A DNA stretch of 59,078 bases, filler included, from Catajapyx aquilonaris (GCA_000934665.2; 3 parts of 3 records of this genome joined end to end with filler, not necessarily neighbours in it); one strand, 5' to 3'. Positions 14,233-59,078 are shown, numbered from the whole stretch's first letter. The notes: generated by a model not told the origin, from the sequence alone. A program made the numbers and translations.

Positions 14233-14917
14233 TGTCATTTTGCAGAAAGACGTATAGGATGAGGCCTACATAGTCCAGCTCTCTACTTCAAACTGACATT
14301 GCCAAAATGTCTGGATAAATGTTTCCCTTAATAAATGAACTATGCTTGCTGAAAACTAATACTGTAGAATTTGCTGGAAAATCAAACTATAATTTCTTTG
14401 ATGTAAGTATAATAATGGAATTGTTCGGTGTTCGCTGATGACCAGGAAGCGCTACATAATAATTATTGTGTTATTGTACTGTACTTCTGGGAGTAAAATG
14501 GCGGTCTGGTTAAATTTATTAGCTCTTAGAAAATTGTTTTAAAATGTGATTTAAATGCACAGGTTCCAAATAAAATATGAGCAACGCATTTTTGAACTTT
14601 CCATATTACTGCCTTTTCATGAACTTTATTCCCTTTTCCTTGCGACTTTACAGTGTATTAAAAACACAATGACAGAATCAATGAAATAAATGTGAAGGGT
14701 TAAATGAAATAAGGGGTTAAGCCCACAGAACCCAACTTTTGGAAAACAAGAAAAAATCGATTGAAAAAATATATATAACTTATATATAGCTATTTCATCC
14801 AAAATTATATCTTATGTCACTCTCTACCTTAGAACCATGCCAGTTCATTCACGGTTCTTAATTGTCATAAGTTTTACAGTTATAGCTCAACGAAGTCTAG
14901 GGAAGGCAATGAAATCC

Positions 14918-14920
<3 letters not shown>

Positions 14921-14995
<75 letters not shown>
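14921..14995. repeat. (TAA)25 microsatellite
   Basis: Read directly; the paralogous site at ~9899 has only about 3 units. Confidence 0.95.
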
Positions 14996-14996
<1 letters not shown>

Positions 14997-15595
14997 TATA
15001 GCGCCATCTTTGATAAAGGATCAGATTCGTGCAATAAGAGTAGGCCTACACGTCAGCCGGACTTGCATCCTTATACGTAGTAATGATGTTGAAAGCAAGT
15101 TAATGTAAAAGCGATGCACGTCCACTGACGTGCCTCTTTGTTGCACAAAAGAATATATTATTGCATGGGCATATCTCGCCTGCTATTCTAGGTACCAAAG
15201 TATTCAGTCATCGGCGACATGAGCCATTGTTTACATATTACATGGCCTAGAAAATTGGTAATGTGCAATGACCACATTGCAATAAGGGCCCATCTCGATT
15301 TTTACGGATATGATTTTATTTTACTACTTCTGGTGGATGTCCATCCGTATAAAATGCAAGAAGAGCCGAAATGTCACTAGTATTGCCTTTAAAAGGCTTC
15401 TAACTATCGATGGACCAAAACTCGATTTCTCGATAGCAGTGACAAACGTAATTGTCACTTGAAAAGCGCGATTTTAATACACTACAAACTGACTACAGGT
15501 GTCAAGCGATTTTGAAGTAGCGGTGATTTTTAATAGCTGGAATTCATACAGTACAATCGGACCTTCAGGAGCGTTACTTTTATTATACAAAGTGC

Positions 15596-23290: not shown

Positions 23291-24200
23291 AAAGATATGC
23301 TCCATCGTGTGGTGATGTTGATTTTTGTGCGAAATTATTATTAAGAATTATACGGTCAAACTATATGTACTTTTTGAATGCGGTTATAACTCGCAATCAG
23401 GGACATCAAATTACAGAAAGTTCACCCCTGATGTAATATTTATAATCAAGGCCGAATATAAATGGTTATTGACTTTCCTTCCGTAAACATGATGCAACAA
23501 GCAATGGTCAATTCAGTAGGCAAACAACAATTTTCTTTTGGCTCTCACATGCTAACCACACGTCAAATGCATGCAATAGGAACTTTTCCTGCTGCGAAGT
23601 TACACGAAATAGCGACAGTCTCGCCAATTTTCCTTGGAATCGATTCATATAATGCTCACTTTCATTCGATCAAGGGACACAGGAAAGAACTTTGGTACTC
23701 ACCATATATGCGAGTTTCTATACATTCATATAAGACCTAGGTTCAAATATATATGATTTCTCTCTGGAAACGATGTAGTCGACTAGTGGAAATGCAAACC
23801 TTCCACCAGAAGGACCTTGATTGTTTACATTCGAATCAGTTCCGGTTCTTTTTTTCCCCCTTTTTTGTTTTATTCCTGTAGCTAGTTTACAAGAGAGTTG
23901 TGCATGCCAGCTAATCCGAGTTTGTTGCCAGCAGTAGGTCACGTACCATCAGGGCCGGGCTTTATTTTGGGTGGTCCCAAAGTAGGAAAGACCGAAACCA
24001 TGCAGCCGCCGGGTGCAACACGTACAGCAGACACCGCCTACAACATACTGTGGGCTTGCTGGATGCATTGGCCATCCTAATGTGAGTCACACTGCAGCTG
24101 TATCAGTATGGTCTACACACACACACTCGGTAGTTAGATCGTCACAAGCAGCCTGGCTGCCAGACCTCACTTTGATGATGTCTTCGGGAGACCCCAGCTG

Positions 24201-27200
24201 ATGGCATCGTCCAAGAGAACCAGTATGTCGTCGGCAGTCAGCAGGTCATCTCATGACCATGCTGAGGCCGACGATATCAGACCCAGTGGCGGACGTAGGA
24301 ACACCAGCAACTTCATTATCGCACCGGCTGATAAGGACTTGATGCCGCCAGCACCACGGTCAAGACGTCGTCGTCGCCTGGTTGTACTCTTTGGAAGCAT
24401 AGCTATTGTCATCATTACTCTCTCCATTCTACTCGTGACCGTCAGTCTGGTTCTTACGCCTCATATCGACCAGTGGGGTAAGTCATCATACTAGGTGGGT
24501 TCATCCTTTTGCTCTCTCCTGGAAACGTGAATTAGTAGCAAACAGTATAATTATTTGTAATAATTATCTTGGCCTGCACAAGCCATGGCCTCTCAGATAT
24601 ATTGTTACGTTGGTTATTAGGTTAGGTTATTGTGTGGTGGTACACTGCCAAGTCATCACCAATTCATGAGACTGGAGAATACGTTGTGGATTGTTCCTTC
24701 CAGAAACCAGAGAAGGGTACGAACTTACTGAACACGAGTGGTCGAATAATTACATGCTTACGTAGCAGCGGTTTATAGCGTGCAATAAAGCTCTGCTTAT
24801 AACTTATGCCGTATTTCGTGGGCTTAGAAACGAAATCCATCCAATTTGCCTGCTTTGAATTCTTTATACCACTAAGTCACATTTGTTCTGCTCTGTCGCT
24901 CGGTGAATTCCATTTAGTCCTAAACATTGATAATGAGCCTACTAGCCAGGATTTTCTGCATTCCCCGAGCGCGACATGTTCTACAGAAGAAATCCATCGT
25001 CGGATTTAGTGCGAATGTCTGGGTTTTTTTGGGGGGGACCTAATGTGCTTCTCTTGTTTGACCACGATAGTGTTCTTGGATTATGTCCTTGTACTGTACC
25101 GGACATACTAAACTTCCATATGATACCATGCCATTTAGTGTTTGTAACCACCAATACACCCCCAGAAATATCTCCTGCAATCACAAAATTGGTTCTGGAA
25201 TATTGGGTGCATAAAAATATCTATATAAAAATAAATTCTGACAGTTTCTCTCTAGGGGGCAATCTTATCTGAAAATGAGGGGTACCGTACTCTAGAGACT
25301 TGTGGCTGAAAGGCAGGAGAATTAGAGCATGTTTCTCCAGTGAATACAACCCCGTAAATGTGGTCAGTACGAGTGTTGCAAGCCAATAACCCGATCTCTG
25401 GGAGGGGTTTGGGAAGTGACGTCACGTGAATGCGCATATCGCTGGAAAGCTGGAGACAGGTTGGGCGCGCGTTTACTCTTCTCACTCAATCGAAACTATA
25501 CTTGCCTGCCCTACCCTACCCCCTCCTGCCCTACCCGCATCTTCTCCACGACAGCCGGCAGCCAGCCCTGGAGATAGTTGCAGGCAGGGCAGGCAGGAGA
25601 ACAGGAGGACATTGTGAGTAACCCAATCAGTCAGTGGCTAGTAATGGCCATGCACTCTCCACACCCTCTTTCTATACAGTATGCAAATTGTGCTTAGTTT
25701 AATTACAGCATGTTTTAAAAAGTTGTGCTGATATGTTTCAGGTGCATATATTTCATCTGTCAAATGATGAGATATTAGGTGAAATGTAGGGGTCAATAAC
25801 TGGATCCGAATATGATTTTTGATATTAACTGGAGCTTCATGTAGGTAGTGTAGTTTTTATTGTCGTTACCCAGAACATAATATGTGAGACATGTGTTTTT
25901 TTATAGGCTCTCACGGTATGAGTATATGGACGTTGCGCTATATAATTCTGCCTCAAAGTACTTTCACAAAATTGAAAGCAGGAATTGGCAATGGTCTTTT
26001 GAACACATGAAAAGGAGTTGGGAGGGGGGGGGGGGCATCAATCATTGTTTTATGACCTCGTTCTCCGTTAACAAATTAAATACTGGCGGTCAAAATCTTG
26101 GGGAATAAAAGGGTGGCTGGAAATTCAGTTTCATATCTTTCCAGTCTGGAGATAGTAATTAATTCTGAATTCATTTCCATCCTTCACAGAATGTAATGTC
26201 GGGCGACTATATTTGGCAAATAACTATAGACGGTTAGGTGAGGTCGGGGACGCCTCCAGTGGGTTAGTCACAATTTACATCATCGATCTTCCTGTTACCA
26301 GATTTTGGCTCCATAGCCTGCCTCATCCTTTACCGGCCCTTCCGATTTGGCACCAGGACCGTATATTTTAAGCAGGGGACGAAACTTCAAATGCCCAAAG
26401 GCCCATTACCTATATATTACTCAGTGTGGCAATATTAAATTCTTAGGCCTAAAAAATAGGTAATTGACATCTGGTATTTGCATATGAGGATTATGGTTTG
26501 TTTATCATCATCGCTGTCATTATCAGCGGTATCAGCATCTAGACCAGGGTGTTATGTAATGTGTGCATGCTAAATCTGGGTGAAGTTTGGAAACTACAAT
26601 ATTGCGTGAGTAAGAAAGAGAGAGCACTAAAACTGCGCCTTAATGTTCGTTTGTAAAAACTTCACGACCGTCATGCAGTCCTGCATATTCTACGCCGCTA
26701 AATGGAGTGGTGATAACATGGCATATTGCATGATGTGAGTGGGTGTTTACTGGGAAACCCTTGATAATGGATGAAGATTAATATTTTGTTTTCAATGCAA
26801 TGGGCGAGCATGTCCTGCAGCAATAAAAGTGTATCTGTCTCTTACTTTTCGAGGAAATAGTTATTTTTTAAATTTTACCTTCTCATTTATATTTACGAGG
26901 TTTTAAGTAGTGTACTATACAGTATAGAAAATATCCTGCGCGTTATGCAACCCCCAACGACTTTCATGAACCATCTCAACTAAGCCGCAGAATATTCCCT
27001 ATCAGCGTTCATTCGGGTATTAAAACAGAAAATTAATATGCGGTTTTCAGCGCTTGGAGTTAAAATTGTCGAAATCAACGAGTTATTTCACCTTAGAAAA
27101 TTTCAAATGAATTAAATCCGAGCGAACAGTGTTGTACCATGGAAATTACACCTCTAGCAACCTGGGCCTAAAGAGACACAAGACTGCAACCGTAACCCAT

Positions 27201-30200
27201 AAGTTATCTGGAGGAGAAAAACCGCCGTACTGTATACGTGCAAAAAACGGCATATTATTTCTTGAGATGGTAGATCGTAGTCCACGTAGATGTTTAAATT
27301 GGCGCCATTTTTGCACCTTACGGGCACTTAAAATATGAGCTGTATAATAAGCCCATTTTCCAAGGAATTATATTCGCTCATCCCTCTCTTGAACTGGGGA
27401 CCTAGGCGGTGCACCAACCGTTTTCAGAGCTTCTTACGTCAACTATGCTTTAAATATGCAAAACAGTTGTAGATTGTCTGAGAAAATCGTCACATCTGCA
27501 CTGAGACTATATCTTGTTATCTTAGCAAAATCAAACTCTAAAATAGATTCAAGCTTATAGGGTGTAATGGGAGTCTACTTAAGAGCTATTAATATAAATG
27601 CTATGAGAGAGAAAAATATAATAATTCATTTAATACTGGATTATGTTTTCCCTATTTACATACTACCGTAATAACTTGAACATCCTCCTCCTTGAGGTTG
27701 GATTACTACTCATAGTACGTACTATCGGGTTCAAATACTTTTGGCCACTTTATCCTGGTCTTGAAGCAACCCTTTGCACAGACCCCACGTTAAGGAGGTG
27801 TGTGTGTGTGTGTGTGAGTGAAGGGTTGCTTCAAGACCAGGATAAAGTGACCAAAAGTATTTGAACCCGATTGTAACACATAACTCAATATTACTTTTTT
27901 TTAACTTGTGATGCTTAGTACAGTACATCTGCTCCACACACATACACTTAGGATACACTTTATGATACACTTAGGATTAGCATGACAAAGCTCATCACTG
28001 TGCTGTTTGTATTTATCCCACCCCTGGCGGAAAGCAGGAAAGGGCCTTATTATCACCTACTTTTTCTGGTAATTATGAGCAATGATGGATATAAGACACC
28101 TGCAACAAAATATTGTGCAAGAACAGCATGACTTCTATGCTAGTGTAACGTTTAAAAACTGTAGTCTACGCAAATAAATTCCGCACAGACGAATATATTT
28201 TAAAACGTGAAAGCTGCTTAACGGGCGAATAATGGTGAAAAAAAGTGATCCAAGAAAACGTTACCTTGATATCCAATCGCAATATTCGGAAATTAATATT
28301 AGCTTTATCTAAAAGACCTGCGGGAAAAAAAACCCATAGTGTTTTATATAGGTGGTCCGCTTTAACTTCCCACACCCCCATTAGCATCCCTATTGATCAC
28401 ATCCAATGGCATACTGACTCACGGCTGCAGCCAGTCAGATATGCTCCTAACTTGGTTTATGTGACCAACAAGTCCAAAGTTTGTTATGGCATGGGAATAA
28501 ATTCAATTATAAAGTGCTTAATAATTTAAACTTTATCATTTTGTAACTGGTTCTTACGATTTCGCAATATCTTTTTGGTTGAAGCAAAATCAAATCCAGA
28601 TCGGAGTGTGTTTTTAACATTTTTTTTTAAAGTCTTACTTTCAACCGATTCACAACGAATGTTGCGTTTCGTAGCATGTTTGTGGCTTACGCACGCACCC
28701 TCTCTGACCTAACACTCCCAATTTGAAACTGCGCCTAACATTACGTAACTTCTTGATACGACTCGGATTAGACAGACCAAACCCTCATTCTTCGTATATT
28801 TCCTTTTCCGTCGCTATTCACGACAGACAGTAAGTTATATGTGGATTGATAAAAATAGAATACTTGAAAAAAAATGGCCGCGAAACAAGCACTCCAACAA
28901 CAGTGCTATGCAAAATACATGAATCATATATTTACGCTCGTACAGTACTAGTTGTGTGTAGTATGGTGTGGAGAAATGTCGAAATTCGGACCAATATTGT
29001 ACGTACAAACACTTGATCTTGTCTGGTTTATAGTATACGTTCCTTCCGGCAAGTTAGATTTATGTTCTTGCACTTGTTCCGTGTTACAAACTGCTCTTAT
29101 TGCGTGGGCATTTTTGGATCACCCTACGTTATATTCCCTCCAAGTATTACGCAACAGAGTAAAGTTTTAGTGCAGGCGTAAGTGATGTAGTTCAGGAGGC
29201 AGACTTTCTCCTTTGAGGCCCTGAGTTCAGTTCCTGTATATAGGCTGAGAATTTTTGTTCATTTCGAAAATACAGCATTTCGATTGGTCTTACTTTCAAA
29301 ATCCATCAGCAACGAGCATGTTGGTATCCAAAAAACAAAAAAAAAATACAAAAAAATTGAAAAAACTGTAAAGTAACGCCCATATGGATAAGAGGTGACA
29401 AAATCGAGTTCATCGCATCGTATTTTTAACAAAGACAGCTAATTACTCTATATTAATTCGAGGCACTCCACTGCGAAGGTGCCATATTATGACAAAGTTT
29501 GTGTCCTGACACTCGAGCCCGATAGCAAAAAGACATCAAAGAGCATGTGACTTGACTTCCTCTGCAGCCAAGCATCCCAGCGAGATATTCGATCCACGCA
29601 CTTCACAACACTACAGGTGTAGTTTTGTGTGCGCGGACTTCCGAAACATCCTCGCGTTACCAACTTTTGCCAGCAACGGTCATGGCAATCGATCATAATT
29701 TCGCGTGATTTGTATGTGAACTCCTGGAATGAAATGAATATCTTGGTCATAACATCTCTAGGTATTTCAGATGTGATTCTTGCGATATTTCATGAACTTT
29801 CTGCGACACGTGCCAGTTAGTAATTAAAGTTGTACTCGCATTAAAATATCTGTATAATGTCAAATAAATGCGTACAGTACCTATATAGCAAACCAGAGTA
29901 CTGTCCCAATTCTAGTGGCATTCAAGTGTGGTGGGATCCATACGGGCCGAGTCACCCTGCATTGCGAAGTTCTCTTCATCCAGAAATACTCATTTCATGC
30001 TGGAATGCACGTGCGATTTCGAATGATACAAATCTGATCCAACGTTCAGGATACACCCTATAGAGTGAGTGGAGAAAAATCTTTCCACGATAAACAGAAT
30101 GTTACTATATCGTCAAGAGCTCTTGGTTCGTATGGTATGGTCATTCCGGGATTTTGTGGGATATTAGGAAGTAGACTTCCAGACACAAATAAATCTCGAC

Positions 30201-31500
30201 ATTGGGGGTAGTGGAAGGTGGGGTTGGGCAGTGAAGGGGTCACAAATTCTGGAAAAAGACACACATGACGTTGCAGTCTTTTCCTGGGCCGCAAATATAG
30301 GTAAAATATAGGTACCCCCTACCTTTACCAGCACCCCCCAACATACCCGGGCAACGCCGGGTAACCTGTTAGTATTATAAGTGTGTGCGACTTGATAATG
30401 CTAATGCAATTGCTGCATGGTATTATTTTGTAATTTTAAAATAAATTATGTGGCATCTCAGTGCAGCTTATTCAATAGGACAATATCATTTCCGAGGTAG
30501 CAAATCCTTCCAGATTAATGTCAAAAATATTGATCACTTCTGGACTAAAATGTCTATATGACAAAGTTTTTAAAAGTGTGTCGTGCATAATTTGCCAAGC
30601 CTATCAAAAGAAAGTATGTGTGAATAGACAAAACATATCCCTGTTAACCGCAAAAGCACAGCGATATATTATTTTTATCTTTGTATTAGTACAAATAACG
30701 CGTTTTTTCACTTTTAATTTTATCCCCTTCGTGATTGTGAACCGTTTTATTAGATTACTGTTGTCATTTGATTTTGCAGAAGGGTATGGTTTTTAAAATA
30801 ATTATTCTAAGCATCTTGCCGATTGTCTCGTGCATGCATTTTTCATACTTTACAATATCTGCCAAATGGCCAATGTGATGGTCTGTTACCAAGATTTTGT
30901 TATTATATTATTTATAGATGTACCGCTTCCCTAGTCATATTATTTGGAAGGTTCTGAATGTACTGTAAGAGTGGAGGTTTATCTGATATTCTCATAGACT
31001 ACCCAGGTTAGTTTTATGCCCTTGGATTCCATGGCATCTACAGTGTTGCTGTTATACTGTACTCTCCCTTCTTATCATCCTAAAAATCTACAGCACGTAA
31101 TATGCATCATCATCACGAAATATGCCGGAGCTGTAGCACTTGCTGTATATAACGCATGACTGTTATACCCATTTTTTCATATCCTTTCTCTTTTCGGATA
31201 CAAGCTTGTACTGTACTACTTGTACATTACTCTTTGTATAGACCCACTATTGAGCTATTCTACTCGTAGCTATTCCTCCGATATTCTCTATGTCCCCACC
31301 CCACAGCTAGGAAATGCTGGAAGATGAGCGCGGTATATCGTCAGCGGAGCCCAGCAGTAAAGCAGATAGGTCGTCGTGCTACAGTGTCAGCAGACAGCAT
31401 GTGGAAGGACGAAGTGGAAAACATGACGTCAGTAGGAAATCGAAGCCCAAGGAGCATCGACGGCGCCGAGGGCGTTCACACCTCTCCCCGGAGGACATGA
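24201..31500 (+). CDS. Single-pass (type II) membrane protein A, 156 aa (exons 24201-24477 and 31307-31500)
   Basis: RRRRR followed by TM LVVLFGSIAIVIITLSILLVTVSLVL, then TPHIDQW and a strong phase-1 donor G|GTAAGT. Splicing to the CCACAG acceptor at 31306 gives ARKCWK...ENMTSVGNRSPRS...SPRRT* (64 open codons, with an NMT sequon). Exon 1 is well supported. The acceptor choice is inferred, since 33788 is also phase-compatible. Confidence 0.6.
25383..25619 (+). promoter_or_regulatory. Putative internal promoter and non-coding first exon
   Basis: CCAAT at 25383, perfect CRE GTGACGTCAC at 25416-25425 overlapping an E-box CACGTG, and TGCGCA at 25431. An ATG-free GC-rich stretch follows and ends at a GTGAGT donor (25614). 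Confidence 0.5.
27722..27873. mobile_element. Tc1/mariner-type MITE
   Basis: ~50-bp near-perfect TIRs (ATCGGGTTCAAATACTTTTGG...GCAACCCTT), flanking TA on both sides, and a (GT)n core. Confidence 0.8.
30344..30373 (+). mobile_element. Helitron-like 3' terminus
   Basis: GC-rich hairpin TACCCGGGCAACGCCGGGTA followed 5 nt later by TTAG-T, a variant of the CTAG end. Confidence 0.45.
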
Positions 31501-33900
31501 TGCTCGTGTCGCAATTACAGCAATCCCGACGATGTCATACAGCTACGACTGCATCCAAAAAGAGACATGATGAGGAAGTTCTGTTGCATCCTTGCAGCTG
31601 CAGAGGAGTTCAGAGGCATTCAACTGGTGGTGATAGCTTCCCTTATCCCTCTGCTTTTCTTCTGTTCCCGAGAACCCCCACCCCTCCTAGGCTAAGTTTG
31701 ACCTCTAAGCTACCCAGCAGCTACTACACTCGAAGTGATCAGAAGATCAGAAGATCATATTCACTGATCGAGCTGAGCAGCCCTGTTAGCCCTCTTCTGC
31801 AGCCTATGACCGCGAACGCCATGGAGCTGAGTAACCCAGCTAGCCCTCCGCCAGCACCACCATCTTCATTGCAACGTGGTGGTAATCATGTGGCTGCTGC
31901 AACACTGCTCAAGAGGAGGCTCGTCCTCACCACTGGAGGAGGTCCAGGAGGTATAGGAGTCGGAGGACCACCGTTTTCTTCGTCTGCATCTGACGATACT
32001 TTACCAAAAAGGGCTAGATGGACCATCATTCTCACCGCGACCATCTTGCTTATGATGAGTGTGGTATTGGTCGGAGTCACGCTCAGGATGGCTCCTATCA
32101 TCGACTCCATGGGTAAGTCAGTATACCAGGTGAATAAATAATAATTAGTGACCTGTAGGCGACCAATACTGCTATCAACACAGGGCATATTCATGTGTGC
32201 TTTTGATGTAAAGATCCATTCAGTATGTGCAAGAGTCGACCCATCTTGACAGCCCAGAAATTATTGATGTCATACCATAAATTCTCTCACTCCTCAATCC
32301 CTCCTCTCTCCATATAGTCCAACCCATCTCTTCCAGAATTTTGGACTTACCTGCAAATATGTGCTGCTTCCATCCTGCATTCCAGACACATGAAGGGGAA
32401 CGTTGGCGGGGATTGCCTTGGACTAGTTGGTGTGAATGTTGCAAACTATCAAAGCCATTTTGACGGGGAGCCACAAAGCACGGAGTGAAGTAGTTTTAAT
32501 GATTTTATGACTCGCATCTCAGCATGGATAAGTTAATTTTAATGAAAAGGGCAATGCTGATTACCCGCTAAACTAAGGATCCACTGGCATTTTAGGCAAG
32601 TTATCTTTCAGTTTATTTTGTTCAACGTTATTGCAAAGTGAATAGTCTACTCTACTTGTATAGTTATAATCAATGCCTAACGAATCCTGCATATTGGACA
32701 AGAGGACATTTTACATGTACCGGTATAAATTGAAATGTAGCAATATTCAAACAAAATTTTAACATGACCTTAGCTTTTGTATCTTAACAATGCATGGAAC
32801 AACTCCCAACCGAAATTATCGAGAAACACTGCGCGTTTCGATCCTGGAACTCTTCTGGAAGATTTCCATTCGTTTGTTCTCGGATTTCCAATACACTCTG
32901 CCTTCATTCGCGAGTTGTGCCAGTTTCAATATTGGAAACTTGGCAGAGTGTATTGGATGTGAGATCATGCATGAGACTTTTTTTTATATATGGGATCTTG
33001 TTATGGGCCTTTATTATACTTACTGTGCATTATATGCTCATTATGGGAAAACCATTAATTTATGTCACGTTTTGCGGTAAAGTGGTACAGTATATCTATT
33101 GGAATTACAGGGTAAAAGAGGATGATGACGTGTTGCACCGAATTGGAATATGATATGAACTATATCTCGTATATTATATACCAGCATGCGATGATTCCAT
33201 TTTGAACGTATATAATATTACTTGATGTATGATCCGTCTAACTCATGATTGCAACGGAAATAGGGACGGAATTATCTCTGCAACCAATGACGAAAAGTGC
33301 GGAAGCTACCGGGCGAAAATATTTTAGTATAAGTGTTATAAATAGTACATTTTATATTTATAATTTGCAATACTCATTTGTGATTGATTATATTGGCAAC
33401 TTTTGCACACACATCTGCAAAAATGTTGGGTTCGATGTCCCATAGACAGCTGGCTGGATTTTTTGAGGTGAGGATGGTAGACACGACGAAATTCTAATTG
33501 AGTTGTTGGTAATATTGCTTCTATAGCTAATTGTCACATGCCTCATTCTATTAGGCTAAAGTATTGAGACAGACTAATAATGTAGGCATGTCGTTCACAC
33601 ACACACCGGCAACAATAAGTCAAACACGGATATATAGCAACACCACTGCTATATCATTGCAAATTTTCAGTTCCTTTCAGGCTATTCAGTGTGCCACTAC
33701 ATCTCTTTTCCTGGTTTGTTCACCCTTAACGTCAATGTAATTATCGGGAATTCTATGAAAATGACGAATTTCTGTTTCTCATTTCAGTTAAGAAGGAGAA
33801 TCGAGAGTCTTTTGGCGGTCCCAGTCGTGAGGAAGCTAACCTGACCACGACTGAATCGTTGCAACCTGGCACATCTCCCTCGACTGAGAGCACAACCTAA
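31314..33900 (+). CDS. Single-pass (type II) membrane protein B, 303 aa (exons 31314-32112 and 33788-33900); paralog of protein A
   Basis: 266-codon ORF with an S/P/R-rich N-terminus, then KRAR and TM WTIILTATILLMMSVVLVGVTL, then RMAPIIDSM and a phase-1 donor G|GTAAGTCA. The TTTCAG acceptor at 33787 gives VKKENRESFGG...EANLTTTES...STT* (NLT sequon). An alternative start is possible at ATG 31497 or 31500. Confidence 0.8.
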
Positions 33901-36340
33901 GCGGTGATGACGGCCGTCAAGAGCCGACGTCTACCTACCTCATTGAGCAGCAATACGAAACTGCACAATTTCTCCAGAACTCTGTCAGTGACAATGGAGA
34001 TATCAGACTAGGTCCGTCAGTAAACATGCATGCAAAAAAAAACACACCCACATAATAATATACACAAAGACAGAATCCACACATATATATACGTACGTAT
34101 CTTTCAAGTCCAGGGACTTCCGCTCCATTTGTTGTGAAGATCAGAAATGTGCAATGATATTTGATTCATAGTATGATGACTCTAGTGAGAGGTGCAATCA
34201 AGCAGTCATGCATTATGCACTGAATCAAGTGAAATGCATCGCTACCGACATATCTTTTGAACGTATAGGACACTATTTATTTTCATTGCGGATCTTTTGG
34301 ATTACTTGAAAGGGTTGTTTTGCTCCATTTCAGTTATTTTGTCATCTTCCATTACATGAGAAAAAGAGGTGATGTACACACAAACTTGTAAAAATACATA
34401 ATTGTATATTTAGTCAGTGGGATCGAGTTTATATCAGGTGTCAGTCACTTATATCAGCTGCAGTAGTAGTTTTTTAAAATTTCTCCATGTTGGCCATGGC
34501 ATTTCTAAATCTCAGGTTATATCATCTGAATCTTTTTACATCGCGCATTTCCTGAGACATCGGCCGTATATTGCAATAATGTCCTAAATCAGACGTTGGG
34601 AAGAGGATAATTATGACGTAGATAATTTCTCACCCTTTATATGCAGTGTATTACTAGGAGTGGTTGGGATGGAGTCATAACTGAGGGTGCAGAATAAGTA
34701 TACTTGTGTATATTAATTAGACTCAGCTTATAGGTCCCTCGGTCTAGCTAATTTACAGTGTGCGTATTATTAGCCACCATAGAGAGAGATATCCGACTTT
34801 TGGGTCGACCCAGCTATACTGTAGTGAATGAGCTCATAATTATGCCAACATGATTATAGATAATAGGTAGGTCAAAATGTCGGTGCCTGCTAGTAGAGGT
34901 CAGAGCGTGGTCAGAGAAGCGAGCAACAAATACACATTCATCTCTCACTGTTGTCACATTGTTCTCTCTCCACCCCCCCTCCTCTCTCTCTCCCCCACAA
35001 ATACACAAACACCCACCCACATACACACGAGCACACACACGGTGGTTGTGACCGACGGTAGTGCATCGCAGGTTAATGTGAATCTTTGGTCACATGTAAG
35101 GTGAACTGTAAAGAGAAGTCGTCGAGAAAGAATTCGTTTTGCATATTGCACAGGTGAATTATCATGCCAATTTTCAGGGAAAAGATGCCGTCGACAACGA
35201 TCTGAATAAAAGCTTCCTGAGGAAGTAACTGTGCTCATGTCACGTTTACGTGAAAATCCTTCCGCCATTCCCTCCTACAGCTATGTCGTTGTTTTTACTG
35301 TAGGCGTGAACATCATTGGACAAAGTCATTTCGTGAATTTTTTAAAAATTTTGTGTGAAATCAGATAAAACTAGAAGATTTGGTGGGAAAGCGAACAAGG
35401 TATATTATCAAATGAAATTTTACGAAGGGATTAAATGTGAAAATTATGAATACTGTCCATAACAATAAGTATGTGTGCCCTAGCTGTGTCCAGCCTGTGT
35501 CATCGTCACCCTGAAGGTACAGTACAGTACATACTACCTTGATACTACTCAGGACCAGAATGAAATAGCGCGAAAGACCGTACTTTTCAACTGATTTTAA
35601 AATATCAAAAATCGAGTTTGCGAAGTAATTTTGTCACAGACCACTCTTGAGAGAGCGAACAGAATTTAGTGGCTAAAAGGATTGCGGGAAAATCAATCTC
35701 TGGGCTCCTCTTTCTCCTCCTACCCCTCTCTCCCTCCTCCCAATGAATGATCTAACGACTCTTTTTTCAGAGAAGCCGAACCAACGTAATGGGGTAGTCC
35801 TTAGATAATAAAAGGGGTTAATATCTATGGGGTAGTCATGATTGACCTTCACACCCAAACTCGACAACTTAAGAGGACATAAAATTTGTCAAGTTTTTGT
35901 AGTGCTCACGAATGGGCCCATCCACCTATTGTATGTAGTTAAAACTTCTAAAGCCCCTTAAAATCACTGGTCCAAAGTATATAAAAAAGCTTATCGTAAT
36001 TAAATGCGAGTATATTATGATATACGGTACGATAGGGCAAGAAATTAATATACCAGCAAAACCAAACACCACAATTATTATTAAAACACGATTTAATTAT
36101 GATCATTTACAGATGGATAATGAATTTCGCGTATACTTACTGCCGGTAATCTCGCAAGGATGGCCTTCAAAAGCAATCCGTTTCGACTGGCAGACACCTC
36201 CATATAGATTGATGACTCTTTTCAACCACGTAAAATGCATTTTTGAATGGTTCCAAGGCGTTCACTCTCGCCATTTTATACTTTTTACACCCTTTCACAA
36301 AATCGCAAATCACTGACAAAATCACAAATCATTGACATCT

Positions 36341-36844
36341 TCACATGCATGCTTCCCTTGGTATCAACGCGCACAAGTACTCATGTGGGAATGCTATGGG
36401 GCCACTCAGCTGCCCCGTAGAGTCCTTAGAGTAAAATTTTCTTCCCATCCGGACCATACACTTCATCTTGATGGGGAACGACACTTTTATTCCTTCTCCG
36501 AACCTATTGAAGATCTTGTACCAGCTGTTTGACAGTTCGAGACCCTCAAAGTCTTCAAGGAAATAAAGACGCCAACTTCTGGACATTGCTGTACCCCTGC
36601 TGCCAAAGAGCACATTGAATGCATCGACTCGGAAAGTTATCCGTAAGTGGCCACTGCGTGATGATTTCCTGGTGAGCTCCCGAGCGATTTTTTGCAAAAA
36701 GACTTCTTTAGCTTCAGCTAGAACTTCGGCACTAAGTTTAGGTGAGTAGTAGCTCTCTTTTGCAGCTTTGGTCAGATTTGCTCCAGGCTCCCAAGTGCAG
36801 GACGCTTTGGTGTATCCTTTCCACTGGACCAAGTACTTGTGTCC
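36341..36844 (-). CDS. Chromodomain-containing terminal exon (probably transposon-borne; upstream exon not found)
   Basis: Acceptor TTTCTCATGTAG| then GHKYLVQWKGYTKASCTWEPGANL, matching the chromodomain consensus YLVKWKGY..x.TWEP..NL. Open for 167 codons to TGA. Confidence 0.7.
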   Translation of the reverse strand, partial: GHKYLVQWKGYTKASCTWEPGANLTKAAKESYYSPKLSAEVLAEAKEVFLQKIARELTRKSSRSGHLRITFRVDAFNVLFGSRGTAMSRSWRLYFLEDFEGLELSNSWYKIFNRFGEGIKVSFPIKMKCMVRMGRKFYSKDSTGQLSGPIAFPHEYLCALIPREACM

Positions 36845-37109: not shown

Positions 37110-37750
37110 TACGAGGTGTGATCAAAAAGTTCCCGGACTGTCGATATACCGTGAAATCCAGTGGAGGTACGAACTTGTGACGTTAGGGGGCGCTAGGTTA
37201 CACCTTTCATCTATTAGTCTGAAAAATTTCGTCTTCATAGGTGCGCATGTTTCCGAGTTTCGGCAGTTTTTTTGACACCGGGTTCTTGTGCTTCTGCGAT
37301 TTTTCGAAATCGCTTATGTTAGGGAGCAAAAGATTTGTAAATTTTGCTTCCAGCTCAACAAAACTTCGGATGCAACCAACCGAATGCTGAACAAGGCTTT
37401 TGATGAGCAAGTTGTAAGACAAGCATTAACATATGAGTGGTTTAACAGCTTCAAAGGTGGCGCGGCGCGTCAAGTTTGCAGCAAAATCAACTCAATGCTG
37501 ATCATTTTCTTTGACATTTTAGGAATTATGCATATGGAGTTTCTCCCTCTTGGTAAAACTGTCAACGGCAAGTATTAGGGCCTACTGGGATGGTTTGAGA
37601 CGATTTAGGCTCAAATGGCCGGAGATGTGGAAGAACATATAGACTGGTTGCTGCACCATGACAATGCCGCCTGCACACACCTCACGCGTAGTCAGGGACT
37701 TCCTGATAAAAAATAACATGACCACTGTTCCCCACCCTGCATATTCGTTT
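37110..37750 (+). mobile_element. Internally deleted, degenerate mariner transposon
   Basis: TIR-like TACGAGGTGTGATCAAAAAGTTCCCGGAC. Translated pieces EQKICKFCFQLNKT...YEWFNSFKGG (HTH), SKINSMLIIFFD..GIMHMEFLPLGKTVN and LLHHDNA.AHTSRVVRDFL...VPHPAYS match mariner motifs, with frameshifts. Confidence 0.9.
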
Positions 37751-37977
37751 GTCCTGGCCAAGGGGGTACTCACTTCGGTACTCCGGTGTACACCTGCAGT
37801 GGTACTCCTTGGTACTCCCTGGTGCTCCCAGACGATAAACAAATATGCCTCTAACTTCGGGAGCTTTTCCCTCTCGTGTCGTGCTTCCAATCCCAAGGGG
37901 CTAAAAAATGGTGCCGGGGATCGAACCCGGGACCTTTCACATGCAAAGAGAACGCTCTACCACTGAGATACACCCCC
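37750..37977 (-). mobile_element. tRNA-Ala(TGC)-derived SINE or pseudo-tRNA with 3' body
   Basis: Minus strand of 37977-37909 reads GGGGGTGTATCTCAGTGGTAGAGCGTTCTCTTTGCATGTGAAAGGTCCCGGGTTCGATCCCCGGCACCA. A/B boxes and the TGC anticodon are present, but the acceptor, D and anticodon stems have mismatches. Confidence 0.7.
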
Positions 37978-58519: not shown

Positions 58520-58910
58520 ACTAATAAATAGCTAATACTAATAAACTAATAAATAGCTCATACTAATAAACTAATAAATAGCTAATACTAATAAACTAAT
58601 AAATAGCTCATACTAATAAACTAATAAATAGCTAATACTAATAAACTAATAAATAGCTAATACTAATAAACTAATAAATAGCTAATACTAATAAACTAAT
58701 AAATAGCTAATACTAATAAACTAATAAATAGCTAATACTAATAAACTAATAAATAGCTCATACTAATAAACTAATAAATAGCTCATACTAATAAACTAAT
58801 AAATAGCTAATACTAATAAACTAATAAATAGCTAATACTAATAAACTAATAAATAGCTAATACTAATAAACTAATAAATAGCTAATACTAATAAACTAAT
58901 GAATAGCCAA
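58520..58910. repeat. Minisatellite, about 15 copies of a 25-bp unit
   Basis: Unit CTAATAAATAGCTMATACTAATAAA, embedded in related AT-rich degenerate repeats (~57400-59000). Confidence 0.95.
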
Positions 58911-59078
58911 CATTAATCTCATACTACAATAATAATTGCATTGCTAGTATATAGAATAGCTGATGTAGAATTAATGCAATAGCTAATACCAGTATACTAC
59001 TACATCGCTGATATAATCATAATGTACAAATATAAACATACAGAATGTAATGGAAGTGACAATGTTGTTTCGGTGGGG

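Follow-up and report, generated by a model that had tools for sequence, protein, structure and literature searches.

Clustered protocadherins and UGT1A splice variable first exons to constant exons, and the variable exons of the protocadherins are true first exons, not known to have a 3' splice site. Dual-coding exons produced by alternative splicing are among the subjects of PMC1868773 and of Tress et al. 2026 (10.64898/2026.05.28.727796), and selector and docking sites created by tandem exon duplication are treated, with Dscam and srp as examples, in Ivanov and Pervouchine 2018 (PMC6071210). The locus described here lies in a stretch of 59,078 nucleotides from Catajapyx aquilonaris (GCA_000934665.2; three parts of its genome records joined end to end with filler), referred to below as the window. 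It comprises two exons, A and B, each encoding one transmembrane (TM) helix, and a short tail exon that begins at 33788. An initial annotation had explained the two TM exons by a downstream exon read in two frames, as in CDKN2A/ARF, or by a bicistronic messenger RNA (mRNA). The analysis favours, with moderate confidence, one gene with two alternative 5' TM-coding exons that arose by duplication and are each joined in phase 1 to the 33788 tail. Alternative 5' coding exons on a common 3' exon are a fairly ordinary arrangement, and in this case it falls within an unnamed arthropod family.

Both exon A and exon B carry a basic cluster, a TM helix and a P-x-I-D motif, both start at an ATG of their own (24201 and 31314), and both reach the same donor, GG/GTAAGTCA, in phase 1 (a slash within a sequence marks a splice junction). 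Exon B is preceded by an acceptor-like CAG at 31304-31306 after a pyrimidine tract and passes an in-frame TAG at 31308-31310 before its ATG, from which the frame stays open up to the phase-1 G and the donor GTAAGTCA. The predicted protein has a disordered, basic and Ser-rich N-terminus, followed by L-P-K-R-A-R-W, the TM helix and R-M-A-P-I-I-D-S-M. From either donor the tail exon, entered at TTTCAG/TT, reads V-K-K-E-N-R-E-S...A-N-L-T-T... to its stop codon. The basic cluster, TM helix and P-x-I-D of A and B and their common phase-1 donor, as well as the frame obtained by splicing exon A to 31307, the 64 codons to the TGA at 31500 and the 187-nt overlap, had been given in the initial annotation and were all reproduced on the window.

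The end of exon B identifies the family. With its last 49 residues as the query, a HMMER search of 1.84 billion representative sequences (E <= 0.001) matched 143 proteins, the best at E 2.9e-11 and five at E <= 1e-10, with 62-80% identity in the top matches; the whole of exon B in a word-based search gave one match, confined to the TM region. The 30 matches whose names were looked up belong to termites, crickets, locusts, beetles, flies, mosquitoes, a butterfly, ants, wasps and thrips and, outside the insects, to prawns, a barnacle, horseshoe crabs, a scorpion and a millipede. Their labels are mostly uncharacterized, hypothetical or unnamed, with a few automatic 'X-like' designations, and no curated family name occurs among the names looked up. 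None of nine family members reached a curated cut-off in Pfam, and exon A, exon B, the tail and the off-frame peptide discussed below all lack a Pfam family at E <= 1. The nearest ESM Atlas clusters to a termite isoform are likewise unnamed (arthropod, rotifer and mollusc; 0.90-0.91); an SLC3A2_N cluster has a value of 0.76, under the lead level. Nothing relevant was found in the literature on alternative first exons, TM domains or type II proteins in arthropods, a search that did not extend to the family itself.

The assembled family set holds 161 sequences (P0002-P0162), some of which are isoforms of one gene, so that not all are independent. The motif P-x-ID-x-M is present in 159 of them and is followed by a spliced V-[RKH]-x-[EQ]-[NHT] in 44 sequences, by GK or GE in 85, by another G-start in 21 (five of which lead into the Hymenoptera second module described below, while 16 do not) and by something else in nine. 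The GK or GE continuation is a donor G/GTAAG or G/GTGAG translated into the intron, and most of the other G-starts are read-through as well. The residue after the motif is accordingly V (spliced) or G (mostly read-through) in 150 of the 159 sequences, and the window has ATG G/GTAAGT at 32109-32118. As V or G follows the motif in nearly all sequences, we take a phase-1 intron directly after ID-x-M to be a trait of the family. An N-x-S/T sequon is present in 43 of the 44 spliced family tails, and the window tail has N-L-T. When the 59-kb window is read in all six frames, the pattern V[RK][KQN][EQ]N[EQRD] has a single occurrence; it sits at 33787, at the acceptor of the tail exon, where the termite tail also matches by tblastn (E 0.043). 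The TM and juxtamembrane segment, the phase-1 intron and the V-[RK]-[KQN]-[EQ]-N tail with its sequon are all present in exon B and the 33788 exon, and homology shows these two exons to represent the orthologue of the unnamed family. Against a profile of the N-terminal D-K-A-V-S-T-E-D-L motif, derived from 36 members, no piece of the window scores better than E 1; short family isoforms that lack this motif exist, e.g. termite isoform X2.

Exon A, upstream of exon B, is built like it and has diverged from it in sequence. Its hydrophobic 19-mer has a mean Kyte-Doolittle value of 2.51, with five K/R residues upstream of the helix. When all stop-to-stop pieces of the window were compared with the TM profile of the family, made from 159 of its sequences, exon B scored E 1.6e-23 and exon A E 4.1e-4 (17.8 bits), the next piece being at 0.2, and TM scans with the family and module profiles revealed no further B-type or second-module TM pieces in the window. 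In a scan of both strands for a basic cluster, a hydrophobic stretch of 19 residues and, no more than 25 codons on, a GTRAG donor, six hydrophobic sites were listed, and A and B alone have the donor. By eye, eight of the last 18 residues of the two exons are identical, and the DNA of the TM region has diverged to about half identity. The TM-profile match of exon A, together with the common phase and the common donor, shows at the sequence level that the two exons are paralogous, as the initial annotation had held.

As exon A also ends in phase 1, it would read in frame into the 33788 tail, giving I-D-Q-W/V-K-K-E-N-R-E by construction. Two 5' exons on a common tail are the simple reading of the locus, because A has the same phase, donor and P-x-I-D as B. 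It would also be conceivable that exon A is the first exon of a separate, paralogous gene upstream, with its 3' exon within 24478-31306. Nearly 7 kb lie between A and B, and family-based searches are what covers them, so there is room for such an exon. These searches found in 24478-31306 no tail motif, strict or loose, no match to the tail or TM-plus-tail profile better than E 10, and, with 17 family proteins in tblastn, no match at E < 1 apart from a weak and unrelated one (E 0.42 at 27981-28058, to the N-terminal part of family protein P0064), which makes a separate gene very improbable. In a second alternative, exon A would be the silent remnant of an old duplication and would enter no mRNA. 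Its weak family similarity is in keeping with this view, as is the lack of a homologue of similar length, taken up below. The reading frame, start codon, basic cluster, helix, P-x-I-D, phase and donor of exon A are nevertheless all intact, and although the TM DNA has diverged to about half identity, 92 codons remain open, a length of run met at 222 of 16505 sampled window positions (1.3%) and in 2.0% of base shuffles. That exon A is a mere relic is therefore improbable.

The sequence directly 5' of exon A was inspected as well. A weaker acceptor-like CCCCAG lies ahead of the exon, at 24197, and the AG dinucleotides in the open frame 5' of the ATG are, by eye, in phase 2 or 0 and none in phase 1. 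The regions 5' of the two exons align at just 38 invariant columns of 100, which does not show a duplicated acceptor region common to A and B. In frame directly 5' of the exon A ATG, positions 24162-24200 encode R-P-H-F-D-D-V-F-G-R-P-Q-L, which faintly resembles the B-type exon end A-P-I-I-D-D-M-G and the Hymenoptera pre-module sequence G-R-P-T-P-L; this peptide may be a relic or may be due to chance.

A parallel organization is seen in Hymenoptera. In the ant Odontomachus brunneus, isoform X1 has the B-type TM followed by a V-RKENEE tail. Isoform X2 is identical to it in its first 340 and last 25 residues; in X2 an insert of 101 residues separates the B-type TM exon from the tail, and the split codon is changed from V to L. 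The insert consists of an S/R-rich stretch, R-R-H-R-R, a second TM helix and T-L-T-H-S. A search with this module gave 15 more proteins at E <= 1.9e-24 (212 candidates), 13 of them named and all 13 from ants, wasps and bees; with the ant isoform and a chalcid isoform the module-bearing set comprises 17 sequences. Eleven of the 17 combine the module with an N-terminus of their own, and eight of these have the shared R-K-E-N-E-E-L tail; the other six combine it with the B-type TM, and all six have the tail. Over their last 125 residues, one module-only and one B-plus-module protein agree at 123 positions. As judged from these sequences, the Hymenoptera locus yields B-type single-pass, module single-pass and two-TM forms on one phase-1 tail exon. 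The two-TM isoforms (P0161, P0168, P0169, P0175, P0177 and P0154) consist of the B-type TM, a basic loop of about 55-70 residues, the second TM and the shared tail, with a basic cluster ahead of each helix; given these clusters, either the loop or the sequon-bearing tail would end up on an unexpected side of the membrane.

Against a profile of the Hymenoptera module, exon A is the best piece of the window (E 0.0036, positions 5-79 of 99; next piece 0.68). The pairwise similarity is weak (BLASTP E 0.15), and exon A ends in P-x-I-D, not in T-L-T-H-S. The same profile detects no module-like piece at 32113-33787, the position between exon B and the tail, and the N-terminal domain specific to the module was not found in the window. 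Exon A may be an orthologue of the Hymenoptera module or an independent duplicate. One locus encoding two related type II membrane proteins, as first proposed, is probably correct in view of the TM profile, the donors and the Hymenoptera isoforms; the dual-frame or bicistronic mechanism attached to that proposal is not supported.

Joining exon A to 31307 gives A-R-K-C-W-K..., a run that contains N-M-T, so that a sequon was correctly predicted for both tails (N-M-T in the off-frame tail, N-L-T in the tail from 33788). A functional 156-residue A protein made in this way beside protein B, from a dual-frame exon 31307-32112 or from a bicistronic A-B mRNA, could draw on this sequon, on the strong appearance of the 31307 acceptor and on the length of the off-frame run, since at least 64 open codons are obtained with P 0.040 when all exon B codons are shuffled. 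Shuffling restricted to the first 100-200 codons, which are hydrophilic, raises this probability to 0.064-0.10. The +1 offset is naturally poor in stops, because stops there require T at codon position 2 of the B frame, and the hydrophilic N-terminus has few such codons (23 in the first 130 vs 40 in the remaining 136). Another 64-codon open run follows in the same frame straight after the stop at 31500, a sequon occurs in 32% of shuffled off-frame tails, and the off-frame peptide has neither a Pfam match nor the tail motif common to the 44 spliced family members. Several ATGs in exon A would in addition make translation of B from an A-B mRNA inefficient. Set against a conserved partner exon at 33788, to which A joins in frame, an off-frame run with P 0.04-0.10 does not support the dual-frame or bicistronic mechanism, and we regard it as highly unlikely that either operates here; a two-frame reading of the first 187 nt of ORF B, with a 156-residue membrane protein as the product, is hardly to be expected.

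Several points weigh against alternative 5' exons on a common tail, and some of them favour another fate for exon A. Across arthropods, exon B leads to the B-type family with its 143 matches; for exon A a word-based search (seven candidates) gave no homologue among proteins of 50-161 aa, and no annotated A-plus-tail protein from a close relative backs the model. We infer the junction of exon A with 33788 from sequence. The order of the modules is reversed between the lineages, A preceding B here and the second module following B in Hymenoptera, and the isoforms known from Hymenoptera come from computational gene models. At P 0.04-0.10, the off-frame ORF somewhat exceeds the expected length. 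The tail-only family profile does not match the window tail and the TM-plus-tail profile does so at only E 9.4, so homology of the tail is argued from a 6-7-residue motif with position, phase, length and sequon; given this caveat, we regard the junction of exon B with 33788 as settled by homology. The acceptor at 31306-31307 has a long pyrimidine tract and a CAG, looks good and lies ahead of 33788, and an A transcript has to skip it; the Hymenoptera upstream TM exon is joined to the downstream one in six of the 17 sequences. Joining of A to 31307 could well occur here. These last two observations, and the 806-nt length of exon B, which shifts the frame when both exons are included, also speak for the possibility that exon A is mainly spliced to 31307 and that the resulting A-B-tail mRNA, which would stop at 31500, far upstream of the last junction, is non-productive or regulatory. 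Such an isoform would for example lower the output of exon B or be degraded, and would not constitute a second coding use. For an exon that serves only decay, 92 open codons with an intact TM, P-x-I-D and a consensus donor would be unexpected after such strong divergence, and we consider this explanation unlikely, if the most serious of the alternatives.

The features of the locus are collected in Table 1.

Table 1. Coordinates of the features of the two-TM-exon locus in the window, with the content and basis of each assignment.
Feature	Coordinates	Strand	Content and basis
Exon A (coding part)	24201..24477	+	ATG 24201, 92 codons, S/R-rich cytoplasmic stretch, RSRRRRR, TM helix, T-P-H-I-D-Q-W, phase-1 G 24477, donor GG/GTAAGTCA; sequence, frame, TM profile
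Exon A donor GTAAGTCA and intron block	24478..24500	+	18 of 23 bases identical to 32113-32135
Possible promoter and non-coding 5' exon of the exon B transcript	25417..25613	+	motifs only; putative
Exon B	31307..32112	+	pyrimidine tract and CAG, TAG, ATG 31314, 266 codons, phase-1 G 32112; HMMER, TM profile
Off-frame ORF if A is joined at 31307	31307..31500	+	64 codons at +1 offset of the exon B frame, overlapping the first 187 nt of ORF B; TGA 31498-31500
Exon B donor GTAAGTCA and intron block	32113..32135	+	matches the block after exon A
Shared tail exon (coding part)	33788..33901	+	TTTCAG acceptor, phase-1 join, 37 codons, TAA 33899-33901; motif, tblastn
Candidate complement	34169..34181	+	perfect 13-nt complement of 24481-24493; significance doubtful

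With two alternative 5' exons on a common tail, each 5' exon would supply its own start codon, cytoplasmic N-terminus and TM helix, and A or B would be joined to 33788 with the intervening sequence skipped. The predicted products, B plus tail of about 303 aa and A plus tail of about 129 aa, would differ in the cytosol and in the membrane and be identical outside. A choice between A and B could be made by separate promoters or by mutually exclusive splicing after a common 5' exon. As exon B is 806 nt long, inclusion of both exons shifts the frame, and the joint between A and 31307, with its stop at 31500, would be a non-productive by-product that helps to keep A and B mutually exclusive. Both proteins would be type II signal anchors, with a disordered basic cytoplasmic N-terminus, either long or short, no signal peptide, a basic cluster, one TM helix and a 37-residue luminal or extracellular stub whose conserved sequon would be glycosylated; the predicted topology follows from the lack of a signal peptide, the basic cluster before the TM and the sequon-bearing stub after it, and whereas the exon anatomy and the conservation of the sequon are direct observations, we infer the topology and the glycosylation. 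The B-type helix, whose top matches come from insects and from other groups of arthropods, is conserved strongly enough to suggest a conserved intramembrane partner. Replacement of the B helix and N-terminus by those of A would alter the membrane contact and the cytoplasmic interactions while leaving the outside unchanged.

The introns after A and B begin alike. Past position +6, 12 of 17 bases of the two blocks are identical (binomial p 3e-4). The candidate complement of the A block lies 270 nt past the stop codon of the tail exon and, with 23-nt selectors, is the top duplex partner of this block among 8289 windows (-20.2 kcal/mol; mean -7.3, sd 2.8); for the B block the value is -13.4 kcal/mol, and the joint rank is 26 of 8289. 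A 13-nt complement within 11.4 kb is found for 5.3% of 1060 random windows, and with 39-nt selectors many G-rich partners elsewhere have a lower duplex energy than 34169-34181. The segments 24481-24493 and 34169-34181 may be a selector and docking pair, a lead and not a finding.

The intron between A and B may hold the 5' end of the exon B transcript. The interval 25417-25613 is GC-richer and has TGACGTCA at 25417-25424, overlapping CACGTG at 25423-25428, and a donor-like ACATT/GTGAGT after 25613, and may represent a promoter and 5' exon of this transcript. An ATG-started ORF at 25430-25621, which has no family match in Pfam, would also be in phase 1 at 25613, a coincidence that is probably due to chance. 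Farther on in the same intron, at 27634-27970, ORFs on opposite strands encode a near-identical peptide, I-G-F-K-Y-F-W-x-L-Y-P-G-L-E-A-T-L, which indicates an inverted repeat. Downstream of the gene, mobile-element debris is found at 36341-36844 (-), 37276-37578 (+) and 37906-37977 (-); it comprises a piece of a chromodomain (Pfam Chromo E 2.1e-8), part of a transposase of the mariner/Mos1 type (below cut-off for both HTH_48 and Transposase_1) and a tRNA-like sequence (46.3 bits against Rfam tRNA), which may belong to a short interspersed element. The window also contains a long ATT/ATC-type simple repeat (14833-15108), which reads as poly-isoleucine, and near its end a 25-bp periodic repeat (58540-58912), seen as evenly spaced weak profile matches. 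In the barnacle model P0137, an A-like second TM was considered and not relied on, as the match is weak (tblastn E 0.02 without composition correction) and comes from an author annotation of GC-rich sequence.

Gene finders that chain exons or read through donors give wrong models of this gene, which repeatedly carries a second TM-encoding module, by the favoured reading exchangeable for the first; the common phase-1 tail exon of both modules could serve as an annotation rule for new arthropod genomes. Dual coding, if true, would have placed the code for an ectodomain, out of frame, in the N-terminal coding part of a paralogue, and the locus would have matched CDKN2A/ARF in an arthropod, with two related membrane anchors as its products. 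Such an exon would have been remarkable, and the evidence points to ordinary use of alternative 5' exons.

Compared with the members of the arthropod family, such as Cryptotermes secundus LOC111872198, Anopheles funestus LOC125768827, Hermetia illucens LOC119661355, Macrobrachium rosenbergii XP_066947105 and Limulus polyphemus LOC111088543, the locus shares the segment L-P-x-R-A-R-W-T-I...L-V-G-V-T-L-R-M-A-P-I-I-D-x-M, the phase-1 intron after it and the V-[RK]-K-E-N-E tail with its sequon. Unlike 36 of the members, it lacks D-K-A-V-S-T-E-D-L; the ATG of exon B is 7 nt past the acceptor, and an extra, diverged TM exon lies upstream. With the Hymenoptera orthologues (Polistes canadensis LOC106789322 isoform X3, Vespa mandarinia isoform X2, Harpegnathos saltator EAI_09908) it would have in common two TM modules per locus, each able to be the sole TM, and a common phase-1 tail exon. 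The Hymenoptera module follows the B-type exon, is an internal exon with phase-1 boundaries on both sides and no start codon, and can join B to give a two-TM product, whereas exon A is upstream of B, has its own ATG and a B-like P-x-I-D end, and has no phase-1 acceptor in its open frame.

Among the systems described in other genes, CDKN2A (INK4a/ARF) is similar in that a downstream exon could be entered from either of two alternative 5' exons, each in a frame of its own; it differs in that here the in-frame alternative is backed by homology. The mutually exclusive exons of Dscam and srp share with this locus tandem duplication, similar intron blocks, a downstream complement (13 nt, to the A block) and a frameshift if both exons are included, but here the exons are of unequal length (277 vs 806 nt), and the stop codon of the shared exon precedes the candidate docking site, whose significance is no better than about 0.05. 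The clustered protocadherins and UGT1A offer a further likeness, with alternative 5' exons that contain a start codon and a TM segment and are joined in one phase to a common 3' exon or exons. Unlike those clusters, this locus has just two variable exons, its exon B follows an acceptor-like site (pyrimidine tract and CAG at 31306) and is not an acceptor-free first exon, and the constant part would be a 37-residue ectodomain stub instead of a cytoplasmic domain.

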